A stretch of DNA of 64,000 bases. Origin: a virus. Where the stretch lies: positions 34,650-98,649 of IMG/VR virus record IMGVR_UViG_3300046820_001050; one strand, 5' to 3'. The notes below the pieces were generated by a model. That model was not told the DNA's origin. It searched no databases and saw nothing but the letters and a program-made list of their open reading frames with translations. Made by a program: the position numbers and the translations under genes. Shown piece by piece: positions 2,532 through 46,046 of the stretch (positions within the stretch are counted from its first letter, which is position 1; each line of letters starts with the position of its first letter).

Positions 2532-3197
2532 TTACAACAATGGTATCCAGTGCTGCTCGATTGTTTGATCTCCACCTCTAAGTAAAGACTCTAAAGGCTG
2601 AATGTCATAGGCAACTGTAATTCTTGATCCAGACCAGTCCCAATCACCCTGTGCATGCGGATGACCCATTTCAGAAACAATCATCCTATTGTCAATATTA
2701 TGATTTGCAACTTCTTTGTTTGGATCCCCATAAAGTCTATAGTATGTTATTGATGGCTCAGCCTTTACACAATAATACCCATGAAAATTAGGAGCACCAG
2801 GTGCGCCGTGATCATGCCAGTTTAACTTTCCATTTCCTGCTTTATTTATATTGAACCAACCCTGAACGTAGTACTGTTGCTTTTCAAAATCTACACCATA
2901 ATATTCGCAGGCTTCCTTAACAGTTTTTGACAGTTCAGAATACAACTTGTATAAAGAAGGATGGTAAAGTTGAAATACATTATATTCTCTCCACTTTACA
3001 GTTGACAAACTTCCAGACTCTAGCCAGTACCCTGGATCATTTTCCATTGTTTCAACGCCACGAAGTTTTGCGTTTTCAATCAGTTTGTACTTTTCTTCTA
3101 AAAACCTAGCCAGTTCTTCTAGATCATTGTCTAGATATTTTTCAAAAAACTTATGTTCTTTGTTGTTTCTTAACATAGGCCCGTTTGAGTTTAGCAT
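2532..3197 (-). CDS. Putative 2OG-Fe(II) oxygenase (HxH type)
   Basis: WFNIN...WHDH...GYYCV...HPH...RITVAYDI double-stranded beta-helix pattern. Confidence 0.75.
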   Translation of the reverse strand: MLNSNGPMLRNNKEHKFFEKYLDNDLEELARFLEEKYKLIENAKLRGVETMENDPGYWLESGSLSTVKWREYNVFQLYHPSLYKLYSELSKTVKEACEYYGVDFEKQQYYVQGWFNINKAGNGKLNWHDHGAPGAPNFHGYYCVKAEPSITYYRLYGDPNKEVANHNIDNRMIVSEMGHPHAQGDWDWSGSRITVAYDIQPLESLLRGGDQTIEQHWIPLL

Positions 3198-3961
3198 TAC
3201 TTATCTCCTTTATTATTTACTTGCTCTTTATTGTATTTTGCATATTCTTTTTTTCTCCATGCAAATTTTCTGTAGTGTGCAGTTATATCAGACCTTCTGT
3301 TTTCTGATCTTAACTGATGCTTTTCTATAGAATCAGATGAGTCATCAACTACCAGATTCCAAGGCTCTCTTTTGATTGGAATCATTTGAAACACTGGTGT
3401 TCCCATAGGTATTACTCCTTCAAAATCTTTTTTTATAAAGAATGGTATAAATGCAGGCAGTCCCCAAATATCTGAGTCTACTAATCCAGAAGGAACCCAA
3501 AACGGTAGATCTGGTCTGTTTATTGGCATTGTTAGCAATATAGAATATCCTTCAGGTGTTTCATAAAACCAATTCATCTTTACACCAAAATGTATTGGAT
3601 GAACATCTTTTGGAATTGCCATATCAACATTTGGTCTTTTGTCCATCAACATAAAATCTTTTTTCCAAGACAGAGAAGGCTTTCCGTGTAAATCTAGTTT
3701 TACCTCTAGATCATCTTCTAGTACATACATATACCCAAGAGACATTGCATCCTGGAATGGTAAACAAAGTTTTGTAGAAACATTTGATCCATCCCCACCT
3801 CTATCATTTACTGGGTGCAAATCTTTTAAGTCATTGCTGTTAAAATGTTTTGCTAAATCTCTATACCACTGAGGTATTTTTTTATATGACGGCTCTGGAG
3901 ATATAAAATTGTCAATGTTCCCGCTTGGAATAAAGGTTAACTCTAAATCATTGTTTTCCAT
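3197..3961 (-). CDS. Conserved phage protein, possibly dUTPase-like beta fold; paralog of 60374..61087
   Basis: Shared motifs IP.WY+, K.C..F.DAMS.GY, T.EGYS.L...P, VD.D and GTP..Q..P.KRE.W. Confidence 0.6.
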   Translation of the reverse strand: MENNDLELTFIPSGNIDNFISPEPSYKKIPQWYRDLAKHFNSNDLKDLHPVNDRGGDGSNVSTKLCLPFQDAMSLGYMYVLEDDLEVKLDLHGKPSLSWKKDFMLMDKRPNVDMAIPKDVHPIHFGVKMNWFYETPEGYSILLTMPINRPDLPFWVPSGLVDSDIWGLPAFIPFFIKKDFEGVIPMGTPVFQMIPIKREPWNLVVDDSSDSIEKHQLRSENRRSDITAHYRKFAWRKKEYAKYNKEQVNNKGDK

Positions 3962-32386: not shown

Positions 32387-33042
32387 TACGCCTCTTCCAG
32401 TGTTAGGGCGACATTCCAAAAGTCAAAGTTAAGACCGCTTCTTTTTACAACAGAATACTTAAAGTCTGAGAAAAATACTTCTACAATCTCATTATACTTA
32501 TTTATATTATTAAACCTGTTGTCTGCTTCAGTTAAATCTGTATCTTCAAAGTTTGTGTACTTATCATAAGCCAAGTAAACCCAAAAAGATCCTTTATGGT
32601 TTTCATACCAGTCAAGCAGTTCTACTCCGCCTGCTCCACCATCTGTAGTAAATTCTAATGGCTTTGGTCTTGATGGTGATGATTCCATGTCTGCATTTCC
32701 ACTGGTATTAAAGTCTGCCTTGGTGTCATATGCTCTTGATGGCAGCATATCCCAAGAAACAGATATGTTTAATTTATCTGCAATGTGGTATGACCTCATA
32801 CGTCCATTGATCATTCTTTCACGTTTTTCAATTCTAACGGGAGTAAAGTCTATCTCTGATCTATTATCATCAGAGAGTATTAGAAAGTCTCTAGTATTGG
32901 CTGCAGAGCCTGCATATGCCCCTACCTCGTACCCGTCTGGGACGTAAAAACCATTAACCTTTGTTCCAGGGTTGTCTGCAAATAGCATTGCTTGTGGTCT
33001 TGAATATTTTTTTCTTCCAGACATATATGTATTAGTTGCCAT
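32386..33042 (-). CDS. Distal tail protein-like
   Basis: Directly follows the TMP; RMINGRMR, ends LTLEEA. Confidence 0.6.
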   Translation of the reverse strand: MATNTYMSGRKKYSRPQAMLFADNPGTKVNGFYVPDGYEVGAYAGSAANTRDFLILSDDNRSEIDFTPVRIEKRERMINGRMRSYHIADKLNISVSWDMLPSRAYDTKADFNTSGNADMESSPSRPKPLEFTTDGGAGGVELLDWYENHKGSFWVYLAYDKYTNFEDTDLTEADNRFNNINKYNEIVEVFFSDFKYSVVKRSGLNFDFWNVALTLEEA

Positions 33043-36000
33043 TATAATCTATTCCCCCTGAGTTTTTGTGAATCAATACCCTTTATTTGTGTCATTACAA
33101 CTCTTGCAATTTCATCTGGGTTTGCATCTGATTTTACATTAACACTAATACTATAATTATACACTGAGTCTCCTGCTGATTGGCCACTATTTATTGCTCT
33201 CATTGTGTCTGCACCATGAGACTGAACAGCATATCTACTCATTACAAATTCTCCTGGTGTTAGCATTGCAGGGACTGTGTCTGTTCCAGAAGCATATCCA
33301 CCTTCTGCAAAGTATTTTGGAACTAGTCCGCCCTTAGAAAACATTTGAAGTCCATAAAAACCATTTCCGCTTCCACCCATTGATGCTCCAGAACCAACTA
33401 ATGGCCTTAAACTCTTGTCTACATCCATTGGATTGCTAATGCTCTTTTTAGGCTGTTCTGCTAGTTGATGGAAATAGTCTGAGAAGTTTGCTACCTTGCC
33501 GTTAAATGGAAGACCTGGGATCTCTGTTCCTCCCCATGGATCTTTTCCAGCATCATTAAATATTGGCTTACCTTTAGTATCAAATCCTAATGGTGACTGC
33601 TGATGAAGTCTTTCTAGTTCTCCCCAATACCTTGATGTTGGACTTCCAGTTGGCTTATTGTCTGAATCATATGCAGATTTTGGCTTAGGTGGAAAATATT
33701 CGTCTGCTCTAGCCTCTGATGTCTTGAACAAAGAAAGACCAGTAATTGCAGCAGCAAGTGCTGATGCTTTAGCGATCAGAGACTTGTTGGTTCCAATTTT
33801 TTGAGTGTTATTTAGATTTGGCTCAACGATTTTAGGGATATCTGTTCGTGGAACAAAAACTGTTTTTCCATCTTTTACAACTGCTTTAAGGTCTGGACCA
33901 TCTTTAAACTTTAATCGCATTCCAGGAATATTTCCAACACCCCAATTGGTGTATGCATCTCCATGTCTATATCCAATATATCCATCTCTCATAAGTGATT
34001 GCATAAATGGGTCAGTTGTATCAGCATTTATATTTCCCATATCTCTTGGCTGAGTCCCTGTTGTTTTAATATAATTCTCTTTATATTTTGCCATTTTTGG
34101 TGGATCTATAAATCCTTTACTTGTTAAAACTTTAAACATTGCTTTTGGTGTCAAATCTATACCGTACTGATTATCTCCAAAAGTATTAAAGAATTGTTTA
34201 GAAGTTGCTGGACTAGTTGCACTATACAGGCCTGGCCCATATGCGTTCATTGGTGTTTTTGCTCCATCAAATTTTGATGCTAAGAATCTTTCTAAAGGAG
34301 ATGGAAGATCCTCTATAAGTTTTCCATGTCGATGAATGCCTCTTTTCATTTGAATTAATGCACCAAGTCCGCCAGGAATTGAATCTAATATTGCTTGAGT
34401 CTTGTAGTGCTTTACTAATTCATCTGCATTGTCTCCACCAACATCAGCAATCTGACGAGAAAGAGACATATTTCTTCCAAAGTTTGTTTTTTCGTATTTG
34501 CCTATTAAGAAGTTTGTTGCAGAATCTTTAACTTTATTAAATCTTGAAGTAATTGGGCTTGTAATATCAGAAGCAATATTTTTAAATGCGTTACCATATG
34601 AAGCAGTTTTCTTTCCATTTTCTCCTGAAACCATAGACCTTTGAAGATATGAACGCTCATCTAAAGGAGTGTCTATAAGTCTTTTAGGGTTAAGTGCTTT
34701 TCCTAAATCAGCAACAGTTGGTGCTACCTTTGCTGCCACAAGGCTTCCAAGTTTTGTGCTTAAAAATGAATTATTTATTGTTGGTTCTTTTTCTCCTAGC
34801 CTCCAAGCCTGACTTATTTTAGGGCTAAGATTTTCAAAAAATCTTCTAGGAGAATATACAGCATTTGCTATTTTGTTACGGATTGGGTTCATCCCTTGTA
34901 TTTTCATTCCAAGTCTTGTGTCCCAAGGTTGTTTTGGCATTACCCAATTATCTGAATCCCAACTTCCCCAATCATCCATATTTGATTCTTTTGAAGATAC
35001 TGTATTAGTATTAGTGGTTAGTTTTTCTTCTACCAAACTTGTATTTGGTTTTGTTGTTGTTACAGCATTTGCCTTATTTAGTATTTTATTAAATATATCG
35101 ATACCATTTTTTCCAAGGGATTCTTTTATGGTTTTAGGAATAATGCTACCTAACTTGTTAATTGCTGGCTTTACTGCTTTTAAACCTGGAACTGGTGCAA
35201 CTGCTAAAGCAGCATTTAAATTATCTTTTAGGCTAGACTTTGTTTCTGCACCCATTGCTTTAGCAGCAAACATTTGAGGAATACCGCCATACTTTGCAAT
35301 GTCCAAAGCAGTTTTTGCTATTGATGGAAGTGAAAAGAAGTTAGCAGTTTTTTCCCATATCTTCTTATCAAATAATGATGTTGCTCTTTCATCTTGGGTA
35401 TTGGTGCTTCTAGAGCCCATTGATGACATCCCTAGACCATGTGGTGCACCTACGGTTCCACCAGTTGAGAATCTTTGAACATTTATATCATTTAAGAAGT
35501 CTTGGCCATATTGATCAACTGCAGACTTTCTAACTACAAACTCTCCTGGAGTTAACATTGCAGGTACAGTATCTGTACCCTTTGGTATGAAGCCACCATC
35601 TGCTTGATATAGCATTCCGTACTTTCCTGTTAGACCTCCTCCAGGTTTTGCATTTGGATCAACTTCTGGAAGTGTTGCATCGTATGCCGACTGGATTGCA
35701 GCAAGAGCAATTCCTGCATTTCTAACTCTATACATGTTTCCACTTGCAACGGCTGATTCGTATGCTGCAATTGCTGCATCAAGTGCTTGTACTGTGTTAT
35801 CAAACTTTTCTGCTTCACTTATTGTTGCTTGTGTCTCTTGAGGTGCTACATAGGCTTCTGCGCCTACTCCTCCAATTTGATTCATTGCATTTTGAACTGC
35901 GCCAGGAATTCCATTTGCATATTGAGCCATCTTTGCAAGAATATCTGCCCATGTCATGTTTAATGTCTCTGCTGCTGAAAGTAGTGCTGCTAAGTCTGCT

Positions 36001-39000
36001 GATTGAGCAAGGGCTCGCTTTGTTGCTGCATCCATATCAAGCATTGCATTGATTCTATCCCACTCGTCCCTGGTTTTTCCAAGAACTCTTAGTCCTTCAA
36101 TTTGCTTGTCGATACTATCCTGCAATAATTTATTTGTATAGTTAAGAGCATCAATTCTTTCTTGAAGTGGTTCAATAGAATTTTCTTCAATATTCCAAAT
36201 TTTATCTTCAAGATCTCTAATCTTACGTAATGCGGCTTCACGCAGTTCTTCTTTTTTGTATATTTCATCTTGCTTATCCTGAATCTGCTTTAATATTTCA
36301 AGTCTACGTGGATCAGTTTCCATACGATAAATTGCTTGTGCATTTTGGAATTGTTTTTCACTTATCTGATCCTGAGTCAATCCGCTTTGTGGCCCTACAA
36401 GACTACCAAGTGCATTTTTTCTTGCCTGCTCCAATGCATCTGATTGACCTGATGCAAACTGTGAGGCGCTTGTTGCTCTCATATCTTGTGCTGCTTGGGC
36501 TGCTGCTGAAATATCACCTTGAGTCAAGGCATCAGCAAGACCAAGTTGTTGCTTCTGCTGATCAAGAATATTTTGATTTATTTCTTGAACCTTTGAAAGC
36601 GCTTCTGCTTGCTCGTCGTATCTCTTGTTAACTTCATCTGCTGCATGATTTATAATTTCAAGATCATTTGAAAGCATTGTATTTTCATCTTGAATCTTCT
36701 TTATTGCACGGTCACCAAAGAAAGGATTCATTTCTAGATCACGGTTTAGGTCATTAATCTCTTCGTTTAAATCTTCTATTGGTCTTGTGTATGATTCTTC
36801 AATTACTCTTTGACCATCTTCAATTTCATCATTTAGTTCTGCAATTCTTCTTTGGAATGGAGCAATCTGTCCTTCAAGATCTCTGATTTGTCTTTGATTG
36901 CCCTTTAGTTGCATTGCCTCTGGGCCTGTACGAATAAGTGCTTCCTGTGCTGCAAAGAGTTCGTCTACAACTTCTCTTCCCTTATCGCTGGCTTCTTTAA
37001 GTGCTCCCTTGTTAAGCAAAATCTGAATATCAATAATTTTTCTTGCTTCAATGTTATTTAGAGTCTCTGCAATTTCTTTAGCCTCTAACTTTCCATCCTT
37101 CAAATCTTCTACTAAGAATTTTGCTAACTCTGGGTCTCCAAGAACTGCATCAATCTGATCTGTGCTATACCCAAGTTCCTTCATCTTAGAAACTAGTTCT
37201 GGCATTTTTGCATAAAGACCAAACTCCTCGTTTGCCTTTATTGCTTTATTTAAAACTGCTTGGCGCTCAAGTTCTGTATTTGCTGTCTTTATATTATTAA
37301 TATATGTTTGCCATGCTGGTGATGATGTATCTATTGCTCCCGCTGCAATTGCTGCTGCTTGACCTGTGTCTGCAACAACCTCTAATGCTTTTGCTGCAGA
37401 TAGTCCGCTACCAACAAGAATAGCATATGCCTTAGTTTGATTCTCTATATCCTTTATTATTGTTGCATTAGCAATGTCAAAGTTACCAAGGTCTTTTGCT
37501 TTGATTGCTTTGTCTGTTGCTTCGCCAAGTGGACCAAGACCAGATATTGAATCCTTTGATCTTGGCTTTCCTTTTTCAAAGGTAAACATAGCCTTATCTT
37601 TTGGTAGTGCTGCAACCTTTGCAAAATCTTCTGCAGACATAGATGCAACAGCATCTCTTAGTTCTTGACCAACACCAAGTTTTAGAAGCCTATGTTGTAT
37701 ACCATCAAATAAAGTAAAAGCATTCTTCTTTGTTTTATTATCTTTTAATAATTCTAGTAATGATTTTACTGGTGTGAGGGCATTAAATGCATTGTCTCTT
37801 ACATTCTTTAAAGCCATTGCCAATGGTGCTAAGAATGCTAGTGGATCATTTCCTGCTCCGCTGCCACCACCTGAATCTGCATTGCCTGAAGAGTTAACAA
37901 CAACCTCTCCATTTTCACCAATATAAGTTTTTGTGCTTGCAGCAACTCGGTCAACAAGTGTTTCATCTGCATTTTTTGCATTATACATAAGCGATGTTAA
38001 GTGGCCTGTAGCAGTTGTATCTCCGCCTGTAGCCTTTTGTGCATACTTGCTATAAAATGCCAACCTGGATGCTTCATCAGCAAACACTGTTTCCATTATA
38101 GTTTTAAATTTAGAGACTGCTTCTTTTTGTGCAAAGTCTGGAAGTTTATCAAAGTCTTTCCATTTGCTAAATAATACTTCAAGGTTGCTTTCTGTCATAC
38201 CCTTCATACCCTTGCCCTTGCCATTAACAAAGTAATCAAGGATAATAGCCTTATCTATTTTCTTTGGCATTCCATCAATTGTTTTTAAATCTTGAGAAAG
38301 TTTGACAAGCATATCATAACCAATTGGTTTGCCATCAGAATCTTTCATGCTAAGGAATGCTTCCATATTAATTTCATGACCGTCTAATACTCTTAGAACT
38401 GCCAGGGTTTCACCTATTTCATTAAATGTTTTTTTATCACTATTAATAATTTTTGTAGAAATCGTGGCTGCAGCATCGCCATCTTTAAACGCTGAAAAGT
38501 ATTCTAAAATTTCTATAGTTGGTCCAGCACCCTGTCTTTGCATTCCAACCTTTAGTGTTTGACTAAGTTCTGGTAATTTTCCTTCAAACATAAGTAAGAA
38601 GGTGTCCATTTGGTCTGGATTTAAAACCTTGTTTGCTAGAAGAAGCGACATGTCAACTTCAAAATCTTGAGCAGCCATTTGGGTCTTAAATCCTCCCTTT
38701 GTTGCATTTCCGTCACCTAATTTCAAGGTCTTGTCGCTTAACTTAGCCAATTTTTCAAGGGTTGTTCCTACTGATGTTTCAAATCCTGTACCTTTATAGG
38801 TATCTTTAACTTTAGATTTTAGGGAAGAAAAGTAGGCGGTTTCTTTTTTGTTTGATTTAAAACTATCTACATTCTGAATATTGTCTTTAAATCTTTTCTT
38901 TTCTCTGTCCATTTGAACAACGACTGCATTATTTGCAACCACCATATCGTCTGCCATTTTTTCTTCTAATCCAGCAATCTTTTCTTTTATTTTTAAAAGT

Positions 39001-42000
39001 TTTTCTGCATTTGAAGTGGACTCTAACTCTTTTTCTAATAACTGAATTTGTTTTCTATATTGAAACTCTGTTGCATCAGCCTGTGCTTTTGCAACAGAAA
39101 TATTGTTTACAGAAAGTGCTGCAAGTTGTGCAGCCTCTGTTCTACCACCATCCATACTCATTGGTGAGTAGTTTTTATTCATTGCATCGATAACTCTATC
39201 AGATCTCTTGTTTGTCTCCTGAACAATTTGCATTCTAACCTTTAGAGGATTATTTGCTAGATCTTCTCCGTTTACACCAATAACTTCTCTTAAGTTTCCA
39301 ACAATATCAGCAGTGTACTTTCTGCTGCCTAGTTGTACTCCTATTTGATCAGCAATGTCTGCTGCTTGTGCTGCATCTAAAACTCCATCTGAAACATATG
39401 TTGATAATTGTAAAGCAAAATCTTTTGCTGCTGCCTGTGAACCAGATTTGGACATTTCTTTTACAAAGCCATCCACCATTTTCTTTCCAATTTCTGACCT
39501 TAAGAATGTATCTCCAAAGCCAGTTCCTGCTCGTTCAACATCGTTGTATGAACCAAATGATCCCTTCTTTCTTACTTCGTCCATTGCACGAGAAGCGCCA
39601 ACCTTGTCTGTTATCTTTCCTATCTCGTCCATCTTATTAGTTGTTGCTGATATTGAATCTACATACTGGGCTTGCTTTTTAGCAGAATTTTCAAAATGCT
39701 TATTTAATAAAAACAGTCCTGCACCTGCTGCTACTATTGCAGTTGTAACCCAGCCAGTTGGCCCCATACCCGCAAGCATTGGAGCCATACCTGCAACTGT
39801 TGAAGCGCCCAGCATTGCCATACCGCCCGATGTATTGCCAGACATCATCATTGCAGATCCAGCCATGCCAAGCCCCATAGCCAATCCGCCTGATGCTACT
39901 CCAACTTTTTGTGCACGATAGTCTCTTTTTTCTTTAATCTTATTTTTTCGTGCTTGTGCATCTTGTTTTTGTGACTGCTTAAGATTGTTTAGTTTTCTTC
40001 TTTCATCTTCGTCTAATGCTTCTTGATAATACCTTGCCTGATTATAGTTAAGATTTGAAAGATGTTGCTGCTTTCTAAATCTGGCTCTTGCTTCATTAGT
40101 CTGTCTTCTGCGGTCTGCATCATCTAACTTTTGATTTCTTACTTGTTGGGTTACGGATTCTGATTTACCCTTAGCAAGTTTTGCTTCATCCTTTGCAACC
40201 TTTCTTAATACTTTATCAATTTCATCTTGGCTATATCCCTTTGCACGAAGATCTGCTGCTACTCTACCCTGGCGAACTGTAGGGTTTGGCATTGGTCTGT
40301 CTGCTTGAGAATCAAATCTTGGATCACCCGTAGCCATTCCAGGCATAGAGAATCCAGGTACAGATGCAAAACCTCTACGGAAATTTGCAAACTGTCTTCT
40401 AGTTACAACTGTTTGGTTTGGTGTTAATGATGTTCCTCTGCTATCTTTACGACTTCCGCTGCTTGGAACTGCTCCAGCCTTTGCTGCAGTAGTATTAGAA
40501 TCTGTTAATTTTTCTGTTCTTATTACTCTTTTGGTTTTTGGATCAATTGTCATCTTGGTCTCACTACCGTCAGGGTTTACTAAGACTGGCAATGTTTTAT
40601 CTGATCCACTCTTAAGGTTGAACTCTGGTTGAGGAGAACTATAGTACTTTGTGCCAAATCTATCATCGAGAACAGCCAAGACTCCCTTAGCAGTTTTTGC
40701 TGGTCCTAGTTTTGGGAACCTCTTTGGCTTTCTTCCTGCTTTTGCTTCACTGTCTTTGTATTGCTGCGCTAGAACATCAAGTTCTGCTGCTTTTTGGACT
40801 AACCTTGCTTCTCTTTCATTTGTTGGATGACCACCCTTTGACATGAACTCAGCAGCCTCAGTATAAATTCCAATCTGATTTTTTGGAATAAACGGGTGTC
40901 CATTTTTTGCACTCCAGTCTAAAATCTTGCCGTGTCTAACTGAAGCGTTCATAAACTTATTTAATATACCTAAATCAAACATAGCAGAGCCTGTTAACCA
41001 TTTAGCAGGGCCCTTACCAGGTTTTCCAGTTTTACTTATATGGGATAGTTCAGTTCTTAGTGCAGTATCAATTTCTTTTGGTTTGTATCCCAAAGCAACA
41101 AGTTTTTCTCTTACTGGCTTTAATGGATCATTTTTTCCTGCAATTTTATTTTGTTCTGTAAAGGCCTTTTCTTCAGCATCTAAAACTTGATACAACTCAG
41201 AATCTCTAGGAACGTTTCCTCTCCAAGATCCACTTTCTTTTCCTACAGGGCTAACTGCATTTCTTAATCTAGAGGCAGCATTAATTTTTTTATCGCTTAC
41301 AAATTCTCCATCTTTTTGTCTTACACCCATCTGATAAAAAACTTTTTGCATTACTTCTTCATATGTTCTTCCATAAACTCTTCCAGCATCTAAAGTTTTT
41401 TTGTCGTGATAAAGTCCATCTTTGTAAATAAGTTCCTCGTCAACAAACTTAAGCATATTGCTTTGGCTCAGATAATCTTCTAAGGTCTGTGGACCAATTA
41501 CTGCTGGTGTCCTTGCATTCATTTTTTGTTTTGCAATTGCATCTAGTACTCTTCTTTGTTGCTCTTCAGGTAGTTGCTTAAAATCTCTAGCAGCCTGAGC
41601 AGCAAGACCTTTTCTTAGTGTTGATATCTGTCTTTGTGATTCTGGAATATTTTTAAACTTTTCAAAATCTCCAAGTGCAAGTTTTTTAACACCTTCTGAT
41701 GCACGAGCATGAACTGGATGAAGTTCATCCCAGTGTACTTTTGCTCCAGCCTTAAGTCTTTCAAGCATGTTGTTGTAAACAACTTGCTCTTCTGGATTTA
41801 AATCCCCACTCCAAGACTTAATAAGTCTTTCTAGTTTTGGAATAGAACTATTAATCTCTCCTTTAATTGCATCATCATATTGTTTTGGTGTCATGCTTGC
41901 TGCAACACCTGATGTTTCTTGTGCAAAGAACTTCTTTGCGCCTCCCTTTACACCAAGCAAGTTAACAACTGCTTGCTCCTCCATGCTTGGCATTGCTTTT

Positions 42001-44915
42001 GAGAAATCTCTAAAACCAGATGCTCTATCAAACACTCCAGCCGTTCCAACATCTGCTAACACATTTCCAGACAAATTTGGTTGCTGTAAATCTTTGTCTC
42101 CTCTTAATGTTGAAGCAACTAACTGCTTAACCATATCAGACTTGCTAAACTTGCCATCCATTGCTGCTATTCTTGGATCATACGGTGATTCAATTACTAT
42201 AAACTTTCTTTGACCTGATGGATCTGTTGGGTCAATCATTGTTCTAATACTTTGTTTTGGTGCAACTAGACCATGAACCTGTCTTGCAATTTCAGTAGCA
42301 CGAACTTCTGCTAACGCAGTCTTTTCATCTATTGTTGGTTTTACTACAACAATCTTTCCATTAGGCTTTCTGTATATACCGCCAACTCCTTGAACAGGGA
42401 AACTTCTTCCAGAAAATGGCTGAAGCAGTGTCCCAAAGTTTGATGGAGGCAAAGTTCCAAATCTTCCGACACTTACTTGATCACTAATTTTTTCTACTAT
42501 CTGCCTTGACTGAGATGTTTTATCGCTTGACTTTGGCATTCCAACAAATACTGGACCAGTTGGAACTTCTGGATGAGGCTCGTTATATCCTTGTCTTGCA
42601 TCATCTCTTCTTCTATACTTTGCTTGCTGTGCTTTTCTAACTGCTGCTGGTCCATCAGATAGTGGTATTCCTCTACCTGGTCCACCAGGAAGTCTTCCAG
42701 CCATAAAACCTGGAACCTTATCCTGGAACATGGCACTAATAAGTCCTCTATATTTGTTTGTTGTATCTGTAGGAATAACTGCTTCTCCTGGAGAAAGCAT
42801 TGCTGGAACAACATCTCCTGCACCCTTTGGACCTGGAACACTCAGGATTCCCTCTGCATACTTTTTAACTGGTGGCAACTTGCTTACTGCACGTCGTGCA
42901 CCTGGTACTCCACCTGCAAACAATGAAGGATTCTGTGCAGCCATAGTTCTCATTTGTGTGCTAAGAGCATGATAGGATGCAGCAAGATTATTTACGGAAA
43001 CCTTTTCAACATTAAATACTTCGATCAATCTTGTATGTGTTTGGTGTAACTGTTGAGAGGCAGCAGCAGATTCTATCTGCTCTTGAGTCATGTAGTTAAA
43101 TCCTGCACCCATTACAGATGTCTGTCCATTTAACTTTGCTATTCCTCCACGCAGCATTGCAAAGAATTTAATAACATTTGCTACGCCGTTTGCAAGTAAA
43201 CCAAATGTCATAAGAAGTACTGGTCCAAGACCTGCAACAACTCCAACTATGACAGCAACTACCTTTTTAGTTTGATCGCTTAATCCATTAAACTTTTCAA
43301 ATATGTTACCAAAAAACTTAACAACTGGAGTTAGTGCTTCAAGAAACGCTTTACCTAATGGCATGATCTCTTGCTTGAACTGTTCTATTGCTGCCTGAAA
43401 CTTAACCCCTACTGAGTCTTCAATCTTCTTCATTTCTCGCTCAGACAAGACTGCTAATTCTTCTATAGTAGATCCTGCTAAGTCAAGTGCTCTTGATGCC
43501 TGAGTTCCATCTTTTGCAACATTTTGGAACAAGGTAGAAAGACGAGCAAACTGGAACTTTCCAAACATTTGCTCAATTGCTCTTGCACGATTAAGTGGAT
43601 CGAGTGTATCAAGTGCTTGAGCAAATCCAATAACTGTTGCCTTGATATCTCCCTGGTTTGCTTCTACAATTCCTTTAACATTGATACCAAGATCTGCAAG
43701 GAATCCTGCTGCCTTCTTGGATGGGTTAATTAGGGATGCTAGACCAGACTTTAATGCGTTAGCACCTTCAGATGCGTTGATTCCACCTTCTTTCATTGCA
43801 GTCATAAAGAATGCAAGGTCTTCAACGTTTCCGCCAAGTTGTTTAATTACTGGTGCTGCTTTTGGAATAGCGATTGTTAAATCTTCAATTGAAAGAACGG
43901 TCTGGTTTTCTACTGCGTTAAGGAAGTCAATCTTTTTTGCAAGTTCTTCGCTAGACAAACCAAAAGCATTTTGTAAAGACATAGTTGTTTCAAGTGCTTG
44001 CTGTTGTTCTACTTGTCCAAGCACTGCTAGTTTAGTTGCAGTTTCAACCTGAGTATTTAATGCTGCTCCTGCAAAACCTGCTGCTGCTGCTGTTCCAGCC
44101 ATCTCCATTGTTTTTGTAACAGAGACTCCGTACTTTGTATATTCAGTTGCTAACTTTCTAATGTTTTCAACTGCAGCATTTACTTCTGCATCATTTGTAA
44201 CTGCTGTTCCATACACACGCTTAAACTTAACAATCTCTGTTTCAAGTTCTCTAAATGCTTTTGCAGCAGATGCACCAAATAAAGCAAGTGGCATTGTAAG
44301 ACCAACCATCAACTGGCGACCTGCCCACTGAGTATTCTTACCGAAGTTCAGGAGTTGTGTTGATCCCTGCTTTAGTAATTGATTTAAGAACTGCTGTCTT
44401 TGTGCAGCATACTGAATTCTTGCTCCAAGTTCAGTAAATCTTCCACTAGCCATCTGAAGATTTTTTGGCATAATGCGAATAGCATCCATAAAGCCAGCAT
44501 TGGCTTTGTTCATCTGGATGTATTGTGCTTGTAAAGCCTTTACTCTGTCTCGTCTTGCACGGTTGATAATTTCTCGCTCTTGTGCAAAAGCCCTGCCCAT
44601 AACACGAGTGTTGGCAGTTGCTGCTGCCATTGTGTATCTGTAGTATTCACGAAGCGAAAGTTTATTTTTTTCTAAAGCAGATGTAAATGCTAGTGTACTT
44701 CCTGCAACCTTAACTTGGCTTGCAGAGAACTTTCCTGTTGCTCCAAGAGACTGAAGCAGTTGTGCGTTTAAACCTTTTTGTGCATTTGCAGCAGCCAGGT
44801 TGCCCTCAGCAAGTGATTGATGAAACTTACTGAGGCCTGCCTGAAGTTGTCGAAGTTGTGCAAGGGCGGCAGCCGTATTAAAATTAATATTTATATTAGA
44901 GTTTACATCTGCCAA
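33042..44915 (-). CDS. Tape measure protein (3957 aa) with inserted cargo domains
   Basis: TP901-type TMP core (EGGINASEGANALKSGL), TM segments, long coiled coils; follows the tail chaperones; TTG start with GGGGG SD. Confidence 0.9.
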   Translation of the reverse strand: MADVNSNININFNTAAALAQLRQLQAGLSKFHQSLAEGNLAAANAQKGLNAQLLQSLGATGKFSASQVKVAGSTLAFTSALEKNKLSLREYYRYTMAAATANTRVMGRAFAQEREIINRARRDRVKALQAQYIQMNKANAGFMDAIRIMPKNLQMASGRFTELGARIQYAAQRQQFLNQLLKQGSTQLLNFGKNTQWAGRQLMVGLTMPLALFGASAAKAFRELETEIVKFKRVYGTAVTNDAEVNAAVENIRKLATEYTKYGVSVTKTMEMAGTAAAAGFAGAALNTQVETATKLAVLGQVEQQQALETTMSLQNAFGLSSEELAKKIDFLNAVENQTVLSIEDLTIAIPKAAPVIKQLGGNVEDLAFFMTAMKEGGINASEGANALKSGLASLINPSKKAAGFLADLGINVKGIVEANQGDIKATVIGFAQALDTLDPLNRARAIEQMFGKFQFARLSTLFQNVAKDGTQASRALDLAGSTIEELAVLSEREMKKIEDSVGVKFQAAIEQFKQEIMPLGKAFLEALTPVVKFFGNIFEKFNGLSDQTKKVVAVIVGVVAGLGPVLLMTFGLLANGVANVIKFFAMLRGGIAKLNGQTSVMGAGFNYMTQEQIESAAASQQLHQTHTRLIEVFNVEKVSVNNLAASYHALSTQMRTMAAQNPSLFAGGVPGARRAVSKLPPVKKYAEGILSVPGPKGAGDVVPAMLSPGEAVIPTDTTNKYRGLISAMFQDKVPGFMAGRLPGGPGRGIPLSDGPAAVRKAQQAKYRRRDDARQGYNEPHPEVPTGPVFVGMPKSSDKTSQSRQIVEKISDQVSVGRFGTLPPSNFGTLLQPFSGRSFPVQGVGGIYRKPNGKIVVVKPTIDEKTALAEVRATEIARQVHGLVAPKQSIRTMIDPTDPSGQRKFIVIESPYDPRIAAMDGKFSKSDMVKQLVASTLRGDKDLQQPNLSGNVLADVGTAGVFDRASGFRDFSKAMPSMEEQAVVNLLGVKGGAKKFFAQETSGVAASMTPKQYDDAIKGEINSSIPKLERLIKSWSGDLNPEEQVVYNNMLERLKAGAKVHWDELHPVHARASEGVKKLALGDFEKFKNIPESQRQISTLRKGLAAQAARDFKQLPEEQQRRVLDAIAKQKMNARTPAVIGPQTLEDYLSQSNMLKFVDEELIYKDGLYHDKKTLDAGRVYGRTYEEVMQKVFYQMGVRQKDGEFVSDKKINAASRLRNAVSPVGKESGSWRGNVPRDSELYQVLDAEEKAFTEQNKIAGKNDPLKPVREKLVALGYKPKEIDTALRTELSHISKTGKPGKGPAKWLTGSAMFDLGILNKFMNASVRHGKILDWSAKNGHPFIPKNQIGIYTEAAEFMSKGGHPTNEREARLVQKAAELDVLAQQYKDSEAKAGRKPKRFPKLGPAKTAKGVLAVLDDRFGTKYYSSPQPEFNLKSGSDKTLPVLVNPDGSETKMTIDPKTKRVIRTEKLTDSNTTAAKAGAVPSSGSRKDSRGTSLTPNQTVVTRRQFANFRRGFASVPGFSMPGMATGDPRFDSQADRPMPNPTVRQGRVAADLRAKGYSQDEIDKVLRKVAKDEAKLAKGKSESVTQQVRNQKLDDADRRRQTNEARARFRKQQHLSNLNYNQARYYQEALDEDERRKLNNLKQSQKQDAQARKNKIKEKRDYRAQKVGVASGGLAMGLGMAGSAMMMSGNTSGGMAMLGASTVAGMAPMLAGMGPTGWVTTAIVAAGAGLFLLNKHFENSAKKQAQYVDSISATTNKMDEIGKITDKVGASRAMDEVRKKGSFGSYNDVERAGTGFGDTFLRSEIGKKMVDGFVKEMSKSGSQAAAKDFALQLSTYVSDGVLDAAQAADIADQIGVQLGSRKYTADIVGNLREVIGVNGEDLANNPLKVRMQIVQETNKRSDRVIDAMNKNYSPMSMDGGRTEAAQLAALSVNNISVAKAQADATEFQYRKQIQLLEKELESTSNAEKLLKIKEKIAGLEEKMADDMVVANNAVVVQMDREKKRFKDNIQNVDSFKSNKKETAYFSSLKSKVKDTYKGTGFETSVGTTLEKLAKLSDKTLKLGDGNATKGGFKTQMAAQDFEVDMSLLLANKVLNPDQMDTFLLMFEGKLPELSQTLKVGMQRQGAGPTIEILEYFSAFKDGDAAATISTKIINSDKKTFNEIGETLAVLRVLDGHEINMEAFLSMKDSDGKPIGYDMLVKLSQDLKTIDGMPKKIDKAIILDYFVNGKGKGMKGMTESNLEVLFSKWKDFDKLPDFAQKEAVSKFKTIMETVFADEASRLAFYSKYAQKATGGDTTATGHLTSLMYNAKNADETLVDRVAASTKTYIGENGEVVVNSSGNADSGGGSGAGNDPLAFLAPLAMALKNVRDNAFNALTPVKSLLELLKDNKTKKNAFTLFDGIQHRLLKLGVGQELRDAVASMSAEDFAKVAALPKDKAMFTFEKGKPRSKDSISGLGPLGEATDKAIKAKDLGNFDIANATIIKDIENQTKAYAILVGSGLSAAKALEVVADTGQAAAIAAGAIDTSSPAWQTYINNIKTANTELERQAVLNKAIKANEEFGLYAKMPELVSKMKELGYSTDQIDAVLGDPELAKFLVEDLKDGKLEAKEIAETLNNIEARKIIDIQILLNKGALKEASDKGREVVDELFAAQEALIRTGPEAMQLKGNQRQIRDLEGQIAPFQRRIAELNDEIEDGQRVIEESYTRPIEDLNEEINDLNRDLEMNPFFGDRAIKKIQDENTMLSNDLEIINHAADEVNKRYDEQAEALSKVQEINQNILDQQKQQLGLADALTQGDISAAAQAAQDMRATSASQFASGQSDALEQARKNALGSLVGPQSGLTQDQISEKQFQNAQAIYRMETDPRRLEILKQIQDKQDEIYKKEELREAALRKIRDLEDKIWNIEENSIEPLQERIDALNYTNKLLQDSIDKQIEGLRVLGKTRDEWDRINAMLDMDAATKRALAQSADLAALLSAAETLNMTWADILAKMAQYANGIPGAVQNAMNQIGGVGAEAYVAPQETQATISEAEKFDNTVQALDAAIAAYESAVASGNMYRVRNAGIALAAIQSAYDATLPEVDPNAKPGGGLTGKYGMLYQADGGFIPKGTDTVPAMLTPGEFVVRKSAVDQYGQDFLNDINVQRFSTGGTVGAPHGLGMSSMGSRSTNTQDERATSLFDKKIWEKTANFFSLPSIAKTALDIAKYGGIPQMFAAKAMGAETKSSLKDNLNAALAVAPVPGLKAVKPAINKLGSIIPKTIKESLGKNGIDIFNKILNKANAVTTTKPNTSLVEEKLTTNTNTVSSKESNMDDWGSWDSDNWVMPKQPWDTRLGMKIQGMNPIRNKIANAVYSPRRFFENLSPKISQAWRLGEKEPTINNSFLSTKLGSLVAAKVAPTVADLGKALNPKRLIDTPLDERSYLQRSMVSGENGKKTASYGNAFKNIASDITSPITSRFNKVKDSATNFLIGKYEKTNFGRNMSLSRQIADVGGDNADELVKHYKTQAILDSIPGGLGALIQMKRGIHRHGKLIEDLPSPLERFLASKFDGAKTPMNAYGPGLYSATSPATSKQFFNTFGDNQYGIDLTPKAMFKVLTSKGFIDPPKMAKYKENYIKTTGTQPRDMGNINADTTDPFMQSLMRDGYIGYRHGDAYTNWGVGNIPGMRLKFKDGPDLKAVVKDGKTVFVPRTDIPKIVEPNLNNTQKIGTNKSLIAKASALAAAITGLSLFKTSEARADEYFPPKPKSAYDSDNKPTGSPTSRYWGELERLHQQSPLGFDTKGKPIFNDAGKDPWGGTEIPGLPFNGKVANFSDYFHQLAEQPKKSISNPMDVDKSLRPLVGSGASMGGSGNGFYGLQMFSKGGLVPKYFAEGGYASGTDTVPAMLTPGEFVMSRYAVQSHGADTMRAINSGQSAGDSVYNYSISVNVKSDANPDEIARVVMTQIKGIDSQKLRGNRL

Positions 44916-44934: not shown

Positions 44935-45261
44935 TTATTTGTTTAGCGAATTAAGCAATGCTCCTGCATCGGAGTTTTGAAGTCCTGATGCTACATCGAT
45001 AATTTGATAAACAGTTGGAAGGTCTAGAAGATCCTCTAGCGCTTCTCTGTCTTCTGCCAATTCTGGCTTGAATTGCTTTAGTGCGATTTGTGCACAATCA
45101 ATAAGGATATCCATTGACTTATCATTATCATCTGATGACTCTGCTAATAGAGAAAACTTAGCCATGAATGGTCTAAGCAATGATAACTTAAGTGGTCTTG
45201 CTACAATCTCTGTACCGTCGATTAGTGTGATACTTTTGCTGTTTAAAGGCTTGTCAGCCAT
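44935..45261 (-). CDS. Tail assembly chaperone, short (gpG-like)
   Basis: Immediately before the TMP; strong AAGGAGG SD; paralogous to the N-terminal half of 45291..45995. Confidence 0.7.
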   Translation of the reverse strand: MADKPLNSKSITLIDGTEIVARPLKLSLLRPFMAKFSLLAESSDDNDKSMDILIDCAQIALKQFKPELAEDREALEDLLDLPTVYQIIDVASGLQNSDAGALLNSLNK

Positions 45262-45290
45262 AGTGTTCCTCCTTGTAGGTTAACAATTAA

Positions 45291-45995
45291 TTATACCATG
45301 CTGGAGGGTGTAGATTCGTCTAATTTTTCGTAGGTTAATCCCATGCCAATTCCAAAACCAGCCTTTTGTGCATTATATCCCTGAAGTGCAACAATATCTT
45401 TAGAATCAGATGCTTGTCCACCACTGAATACTCTGGCTTTCATTTCTTCCCAGGCATTTTGTTTTCCACTGGCTTCGTCTAAGTTAACACCTTGCATAGC
45501 AGCAAGAAACTTCTTTTGAGAATAATCAAGATCTCTCTTAGTCTTAAGTGTTGCCATTATCTCTGGCATTGACATAGATGATTCTAACTCATCGTAGTCT
45601 TTCCAAATCCCCAGCAAAAATACCTCTGCTTCTATCTCTGCTAAATCTAAGTCATCCCAAGTAGAGCCACTTTCAGTTGCTTGCTCTTTTACTGGCTCTT
45701 CTGATTTTTCGTTTATTTTTATTCCTGCTGAATAATCTAATAGTTTATATATTGTTGGCATGTCAATATTATCCTCAAGTTGCTCTTGAGTCTTTATGCT
45801 TGGATAATATTGTCTCATTGTTATTGTTGCACATCTACATAAAGAGTCAATTGCCTCTGTATCATTTCTTGCTTCTTTAACACTTTCAAACTCACTTAAA
45901 AATAACTTTAAGTATTTTATCTTTAATGGCGTTATATACAACTCTGTTCCATCAAAGAGTTCGATGGTGGAGGTTTTGTATATTTCTGTAGGCAT
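45291..45995 (-). CDS. Tail assembly chaperone, long (gpGT-like)
   Basis: Between major tail and TMP; G-like N-terminal half plus T-like C-terminal half (W..Y.ELE..MS..E); leaderless start MPTEI. Confidence 0.7.
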   Translation of the reverse strand: MPTEIYKTSTIELFDGTELYITPLKIKYLKLFLSEFESVKEARNDTEAIDSLCRCATITMRQYYPSIKTQEQLEDNIDMPTIYKLLDYSAGIKINEKSEEPVKEQATESGSTWDDLDLAEIEAEVFLLGIWKDYDELESSMSMPEIMATLKTKRDLDYSQKKFLAAMQGVNLDEASGKQNAWEEMKARVFSGGQASDSKDIVALQGYNAQKAGFGIGMGLTYEKLDESTPSSMV

Positions 45996-46009
45996 TGTAT
46001 AAGTATACC

Positions 46010-46046
46010 AAACAGAAAGGCCCAACCCCGAAGGATTGAGCCTCTC
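46010..46046 (-). terminator. Terminator after major tail gene
   Basis: AGGCTCAATCC-TTCG-GGGTTGGGCCT stem with a cUUCGg tetraloop, then TTCTGTTT. Confidence 0.8.

Follow-up and report, generated by a model that had tools for sequence, protein, structure and literature searches.

A giant phage tape measure protein with repeated joint-like modules and apparently exchangeable enzyme-like cassettes

The virus record IMGVR_UViG_3300046820_001050 from IMG/VR (98.6 kb, about 90% complete by CheckV estimate) encodes a tape measure protein (TMP) of 3,957 amino acids (aa) that we regard as probably a giant mosaic, in which repeated joint modules separate exchangeable enzyme-like cassettes that are most likely delivered to the host. 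Our analysis covers a stretch of 64,000 nucleotides (nt) from this record, positions 34,650 to 98,649, hereafter the window. A short module containing the motif VPAML(S/T)PGE occurs three times in the TMP, the first copy lying ahead of a segment with a predicted kinase fold and the other two bracketing a cassette with a putative ADP-ribosyltransferase (ART)-like domain. Among related phages, the segments next to the modules are present, absent or replaced while both ends of the protein are kept. The parts of the protein are listed below in window coordinates; module scores come from a hidden Markov model (HMM) built from the copies, and coverage was calculated from 41 complete, non-identical relatives aligned against the window TMP.

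33042..44915, minus strand: TMP gene, one open frame of 3,957 aa with a TTG start
42843..44915, minus strand (aa 1-691): conserved N-terminal TMP block, about 100% coverage in the 41 complete relatives
42666..42842, minus strand (aa 692-750): module 1, HMM 78.6 bits, core GDVVPAMLSPGEAV, ending ...QDKVPGF
41682..42665, minus strand (aa ~751-1078): predicted kinase-fold cassette, from an AF2 model and structure comparison
39954..41681, minus strand (aa 1079-1654): variable block covered by about 54% of relatives, with no Pfam or PHROG match
35886..39953, minus strand (aa 1655-3010): conserved core, a Gly/Met-rich hydrophobic segment to about aa 1738 and then a long helical region, coverage 0.7-0.9
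35460..35600, minus strand (aa 3106-3152): module 2 (internal), HMM 66.9 bits, with a Gly/Pro-rich linker ahead of it at aa 3079-3122
33366..35459, minus strand (aa 3153-3850): variable cassette V2, with the ART-like domain, a hydrophobic helix at aa 3712-3732 and Gly/Pro-rich linkers, coverage 5-13%
33846..34373, minus strand (aa ~3515-3690): putative ART-like domain within V2, IHRHG ... YGPGLYSA ... GYIGYRHGDAYTNW
33159..33365, minus strand (aa 3851-3919): module 3 (terminal), HMM 79.2 bits, including the lead-in KGGLVPKYFAEGG
33045..33158, minus strand (aa 3920-3957): conserved C-terminal tail, SVYNYSISVNV...DEIARVVM..., coverage 0.9-0.95

Profile matches identify the 3,957-aa protein as a phage tail TMP. 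The Pfam family PhageMin_Tail (PF10145) matches aa 255-452 above its cut-off (E 4.9e-26), nine PHROG TMP families align to aa 14-675 (best E 4.9e-97), and the N-terminal block aligns over the full length of conventional TMP families of 625-810 aa. A hydrophobicity scan places hydrophobic segments at aa 202-221 and 549-589 of this block. The first ~750 aa resemble a whole conventional TMP with the module at its usual place, as in phrog_25241, an 810-position profile with the module at 676-757. At the opposite end, the C-terminal tail contains several invariant columns and is found only at the far end of the frames; the last 32-42 TMP residues are the part resolved in the tail hub of phages lambda (PMC12617516), T5 (PMC10038345), Douge (PMC13033339) and T1, and by analogy aa 3920-3957 are likely to be the hub-docking end. 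A megablast search with the TMP gene against 50,697 phage records returned no match, tblastn with its C-terminal third returned only short module matches, in seven records, and Pfam searches with five TMP segments (E<=1) gave PhageMin_Tail as the sole credible domain, with neither a kinase nor an ART among the matches.

The motif copies lie where a first-pass annotation of the sequence had reported a triplicate: VPAMLSPGE at aa 703-711 (window 42783-42809), and GTDTVPAMLTPGE at aa 3113-3125 (35541-35579) and again at aa 3877-3889 (33249-33287). A degenerate DNA pattern for the motif has exactly three matches in the whole 98.6-kb record, all in the TMP gene and on one strand, and the reversed control pattern has none. 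Each copy is the core of a module of some 50-60 aa (about 48 aa in the HMM: aa 692-739, 3106-3152 and 3871-3919; 67-79 bits) composed of a Gly-rich lead-in (for example KGGLVPKYFAEGG), a core D-x-V-P-A-M-L-T-P-G-E-F-V and a short segment ending ...G...M.AIN, and Gly/Pro-rich linkers surround all three modules. The same annotation had placed one copy ahead of a kinase-bearing region and two around an ART-bearing region, which agrees with the module positions.

The module is not confined to this protein. No Pfam family covers it, and it matches many PHROG TMP families, mostly close to the C-terminal end. The earlier description of the motif as usually a single C-terminal element is largely right, with exceptions: phrog_3547, phrog_934 and phrog_7025 each match the module at two profile positions and the mycobacteriophage Douge protein gp16 (PDB 8zdo) has two copies (966-1012 and 1419-1460 of 1,699; weak E-values in a PDB profile search). 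The TMP of phage Chi has one copy (1342-1368 of 1,431; weak E-value in the same search), as does phage lambda gpH (residues 732-782; HMM 12.6 bits), to which module 3 aligns with moderate support (hhalign E 1.1e-4, probability 56%, 49 columns). Our literature search found no description of the motif string or of a TMP-embedded kinase or ART, and tape measures go unmentioned in the comparative-genomics papers that deal with polyvalent proteins and viral NAD systems.

Scanning IMG/VR with the N-terminal 700 residues returned 299 relatives; the 80 loci that we fetched are 66-99% identical to the window protein over this block. Universal features of the fetched relatives are module 1, near residue 700, and the terminal module, about 85 residues before the end, whereas modules beyond these two are seen only where the protein also has an additional block of 128-840 aa; TMP lengths in close relatives run from 2,713 to >4,034 aa. 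Along the window TMP, coverage by relatives changes as follows.

aa 1-740: about 1.0
aa 741-750: 0.49
aa 751-770: 0.31
aa 780-1650: about 0.54
aa 1660-2900: 0.7-0.9
aa 3010-3090: about 0.27
aa 3160-3840: 0.05-0.13
aa 3851-3860: 0.57
aa 3861 onward: about 0.97

Coverage steps sharply at aa 741-750 and 3851-3861. In breakpoint counts that are phylogenetically non-independent, homology stops pile up at aa 725-749 (25 of 108) and 3125-3174 (14 of 108), and homology restarts pile up at aa 3825-3874 (24 of 69) and, past the variable block, at aa 1650-1674 (12 of 69, each in a different relative). Individual genomes make the same boundaries visible. In L047 and L048 the segment ~751-1078 is cleanly missing, right after ...QDKVPGF. 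Relatives that share at least 86% identity in the N-terminal block still differ between modules 2 and 3: L005, one of the two-module relatives, lacks V2, as do L011 and L012; L004 and L032-36 have a homologous block; and L007, L026, L029 and L069 have different content in its place. Colinearity of the relatives, which the first-pass annotation had proposed to check, does not hold, and the variable blocks begin and end at modules. The comparison thus indicates that it is at the joints that the kinase-like and ART-like segments have been acquired, lost or replaced in related phages. A conserved N-terminal part combined with exchangeable cassettes (presence, absence, replacement) is also the layout of polymorphic toxin and effector systems.

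The cassettes of other relatives add some variety to this layout. Between its internal and terminal modules, L029 carries a cassette (L029:10801-13182) with an OmpA-family peptidoglycan-binding domain (Pfam E 1e-12) and a piece of the ART-like domain; the OmpA domain suggests a Gram-negative host and some cargo that acts in the periplasm. This is the only Pfam match among the cassettes of relatives. L026 and L027 (TMP frame from ~5206 and ~5111, respectively) have two internal modules, at aa ~3030 and ~3600, giving at least four modules in a frame that is still open at 4,034 aa at the locus end, and the representatives P0028, P0042 and P0052 have four modules each.

The segment after module 1 is predicted to adopt a protein-kinase-like fold of the CtkA / PI3-PI4 kinase / HipA group. 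An AF2 model of residues 760-1075, made from an alignment of 30 relatives, has a predicted local distance difference test score (pLDDT) of 82 and matches CtkA with a Z-score of 10.6 over 207 aligned residues (root-mean-square deviation (rmsd) 4.3), a match that bears out the kinase-bearing region of the first-pass annotation. Further fold matches are PI4KII-alpha (Z 10.4), the LepB N-domain (Z 9.6) and HipT (Z 9.3); 94 chains reach a Z of at least 8, and among the matches listed all are kinases. Across 30 sequences (47-91% identity) five residues do not vary, K100, D181, D183, N188 and D196, with catalytic roles assigned by order and motif, and the invariant kinase motifs comprise the Lys in VVVKP, the loop RGDKDL...N (D-x-D-x4-N) and D-x-G. 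A near-length search for a stand-alone form of the cassette yielded only fragments from short contigs, and an Atlas lead suggests that ~220-aa viral proteins with similar features are candidates for such a form. Beyond the variable block that follows the cassette, the conserved core opens with a hydrophobic segment that contains a hydrophobic window at aa 1719-1738.

For the second cassette, V2, the match of aa ~3515-3690 to the ART-superfamily fold is weak, the assignment is at best probable, and ADP-ribosyltransferase activity is uncertain. The AF2 model of the domain has a pLDDT of 76. Compared with 48,161 chains, it matches 42 with a Z of at least 2, almost all from the ART superfamily (diphtheria toxin, PARPs, ParT, MbcT, RES and Tpt1); Foldseek places many ART-fold chains near the top, mixed with unrelated folds and all at E>=1, and the nearest named language-model clusters in the Atlas are ART-PolyVal at 0.81, which serves as a lead only. 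An HR(H/S) motif and G-P-G-x-Y are conserved in the family, with G81, Y85, G101, G122, G166, G169, T177 and W179 invariant. The family is small (62 clusters among 1.84 billion representatives) and most of its members are giant TMP-like proteins; in the 50%-identity representatives of these, two to four modules are usual and the ART-like domain commonly lies 10-100 aa before a module. Six members (P0024, P0025, P0034, P0036, P0039 and P0059) carry the domain in proteins of ~390-480 aa without a module, which have Pro-rich N-termini and share a different C-terminal region (...FLRRLGLDK...); these may be free-standing relatives of the cargo. Inside V2, the ART-like domain is followed by the hydrophobic helix SLIAKASALAAAITGLSLFKT (aa 3712-3732, window 33720-33782), a possible membrane anchor for cargo.

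These parts suggest a protein that would be built as a series of segments held together by joints. The chain would run from a conventional TMP-like block (aa 1-691) through module 1, the kinase-fold cassette, the variable block and a membrane and helical core to module 2, the ART-like cassette, module 3 and a C-terminal tail that probably docks in the tail hub. Each module would be a functional protein element, with a Gly-rich lead-in, a hairpin-like core and a short helix, homologous to the single C-terminal module of classic TMPs such as gpH. Set in flexible Gly/Pro linkers, it would act as a joint that tolerates insertion, loss or exchange of the flanking segments while the remainder of the protein stays intact. 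As pre-made enzymes, the kinase-like and ART-like segments would travel inside the tail and leave it together with the TMP when the phage infects. On ejection, TMPs enter the cell envelope before the DNA does, and for this reason delivery to the host is the most likely fate of both segments. Because cassettes are gained, lost and replaced at the joints, the tail probably carries ready-made enzymes into the host.

TMPs with fused enzymes are already known, in P23-45 gp96 and T5 pb2, and the repeated-joint cassette layout is a variant of that kind. Gp96 of the Thermus phage P23-45 is a 5,002-aa TMP with a fused virion RNA polymerase that is injected at infection (Chaban et al. 2024, PMC10770324), and so a demonstrated precedent for delivery of this kind. 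The likeness lies in a giant TMP that carries a functional enzyme and has relatives with and without the enzyme part; by contrast, the enzyme of gp96 is N-terminal and an RNA polymerase, and no repeated joints or cassette exchange are described for it. Douge gp16 and the mycobacteriophage TMPs of phrog_3547 share with the window protein the presence of two modules in one TMP, but are shorter. Mycobacteriophage TMPs also embed small peptidoglycan-hydrolase motifs. The Sle1-type TMP-related effectors of actinobacterial contractile injection systems are described as a modular scaffold with diverse exchangeable domains that are ejected (PMC13277306). By this description they resemble the window protein in their TMP-related scaffold and exchangeable domains, and differ in that a phage-tail-like particle carries them as cargo; they do not serve an infectious phage as its ruler.

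In lambda and T5 the TMP is cut, and the joints may lie adjacent to proteolytic processing sites as in those cases. Lambda gpH is cleaved after tail assembly in its Gly-rich C-terminal region into gpH* and gpHC, and the C-terminal piece is kept in the tail tip (PMC12617516). The lambda module (732-782) falls within the N-terminal portion of gpHC, which the structure does not resolve (PMC12617516). In size, gpH* roughly equals the ~690-aa block that precedes module 1, and gpH likewise carries a module; it differs in having one module with ~70 residues after it, where the window protein has three modules, ~3,200 residues after the first, and two enzyme-like cassettes. T5 pb2 is cleaved after R1127 during tail assembly into pb2* and pb2C, the latter a 92-residue enzymatic C-terminal piece that is cut from the membrane-active part and stays in the hub (PMC10038345). 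By eye alone, pb2C, which begins AEGG..., resembles the terminal unit of the window protein, which measures 90 residues from AEGG to the end. In the T5 locus (L085:14125-14400) the R1127 cut lies directly before AEGGMMYPGVSYQMGEHGTEVVTPMV, a stretch that looks by eye like KGGLVPKYFAEGG...GTDTVPAML at a similarity that is not significant, and the published 'metallopeptidase motif' of T5 overlaps the AEGGMMYPGVSYQMGEHGTEVVTPMV stretch. We rejected T5 pb2 as evidence that the module marks a cut, the similarity not being significant.

Several observations weigh against the proposed architecture, in addition to the shared ancestry behind the breakpoint counts. The TMP is mosaic beyond its joints, because replacements occur inside the helical core without a flanking module, at aa ~1910-1934/2344-2357 and ~2277-2617; these further mosaic replacements correspond to window 37860-39180 (aa ~1910-2357) and 37065-38085 (aa ~2277-2617). 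The kinase cassette has no match to a curated family in Pfam or PHROG, and PDB sequence searches with both the kinase-like and the ART-like cassette were empty. For the ART-bearing region proposed by the first-pass annotation, the fold match points almost solely to the ART superfamily, which weakly favours the proposal, but its best member, diphtheria toxin, reaches a Z of only 4.9 (140 aligned residues, rmsd 4.6), neither the window copy nor 25 relatives match a Pfam ART family (for example ART-PolyVal, PF18760), and no conserved catalytic Glu was identified among family members. Because of this weak match and with no catalytic Glu identified, the domain may be inactive or have another role. 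Among the known systems, the exact cut site of gpH is unmapped and a link between module and cut is not established (PMC12617516), T5 pb2 gives no HMM match to the module (hhalign E 0.19, not significant), no module copy was detected by HMM in P23-45 gp96, and the module regions are unresolved in both the lambda and the Douge structures, with only residues 1658-1699 of Douge gp16 resolved (PMC13033339, PDB 8zdo).

What the modules do can be read in other ways. The first-pass annotation had offered them as recombination anchors, and breakpoints do coincide with module edges and the 13-aa core is the same in both copies around V2. On that reading the repeats would be mainly DNA-level anchors, their common sequence permitting cassette swaps by homologous recombination, and would have no function as protein. 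Compared between relatives, the 13-aa core shows 91-96% protein identity and only 58-65% identity at third codon positions, the longest exact run between phages has a median of 11-17 nt, and within one gene the copies on either side of a cassette match exactly over no more than 6-10 nt. High protein identity with low third-codon identity indicates that the module is under purifying selection as a protein element and makes recombination through DNA identity unlikely; anchoring of that kind was rejected on these grounds. A maximum-likelihood tree of 92 distinct modules points the same way. Module 1 copies, which occupy the same position in almost all relatives, form their own clade (support 100/100) and terminal modules form another (support 100/99), each an old and position-specific group. 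A grade closer to the terminal clade holds the internal modules, sorted by the type of cassette that follows, so that module 2 clusters with the internal modules of L004, L032 and L033, which carry the same cassette. Against the two-module relative L005, the terminal module including its lead-in is the orthologue, and the insertion consists of the internal module plus the cassette. By the tree and this comparison the copies are old rather than recent tandem duplicates. A single module is also kept in lambda and Chi, where no swapping occurs. We consider the anchor explanation very improbable; a better account of the breakpoints at the joints is that the recombinants which survive are those with their domains left whole.

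If the modules were purely structural, contacting chaperones, the tube lumen or the hub during assembly, nothing would be cut, the full chain would be extended as a ruler and the embedded domains would fold after ejection or be non-enzymatic. The first-pass length estimate is arithmetically correct (3957 x 0.15 nm = 594 nm, or ~0.59 micrometre for the full chain), and the precedent of P23-45 favours such a use of the whole chain, its 5,002-aa TMP, which carries a fused enzyme, being reported to define an extraordinarily long tail (PMC10770324). The module is moreover position-specific and strongly conserved as protein, and a ruler free to vary would allow the spread of TMP lengths seen in close relatives. 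That the module regions are disordered or unresolved in lambda and Douge virions speaks against rigid docking by them once the particle is mature, and the invariant catalytic residues of the kinase cassette argue for an active enzyme; on this evidence a purely structural role, with a tail of ~0.6 micrometre, is unlikely though a serious contender. A cut at each module is speculative. Were the modules processing signals, the polyprotein would be cut beside each of them during tail maturation or after ejection, releasing a lambda-sized ruler or channel piece together with kinase-like and ART-like enzymes that would act on the host before phage gene expression, and cassette exchange would generate a polymorphic injected arsenal; we view this as a tentative and rather doubtful extension of the mosaic architecture. 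That the giant frame is an assembly or annotation artefact fusing a normal TMP to downstream genes could be argued from its first ~750 aa, which look like a complete TMP ending with its module, but in dozens of independent metagenome contigs the frame runs uninterrupted for 2,700 to >4,000 aa, its blocks in the same order and the conserved C-terminal tail only at the far end, making an artefact scarcely credible.

The genomic surroundings of the gene are those of a TMP, in the interval from tail assembly chaperones to distal tail or hub genes. Upstream lie two phrog_10504 paralogues and an Ig-domain tail-like protein, and downstream are genes for a 218-aa product and for a minor tail protein of 1,437 aa (phrog_10359). 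The phrog_10504 pair (window 44935-46025), chaperone-like genes coding for 108 aa and 244 aa, immediately precedes the TMP gene and occupies the place expected for a G/GT frameshift pair.

TMPs are usually seen as rulers and channel formers. If the mosaic architecture proposed here is correct, the tail lumen would be a general delivery route for pre-made effectors, comparable to the strategies of T4 Alt or the N4 virion RNA polymerase, with the difference that exchange of cassettes would let it evolve. The short TMP module shared with lambda gpH, which lies outside Pfam, would gain a concrete and testable role, and there would be a bearing on where and why TMPs are cleaved. The phage group is large and environmentally widespread, with at least 299 relatives in IMG/VR, and the injected kinase-like and ART-like proteins would be new candidate anti-defence or takeover factors.

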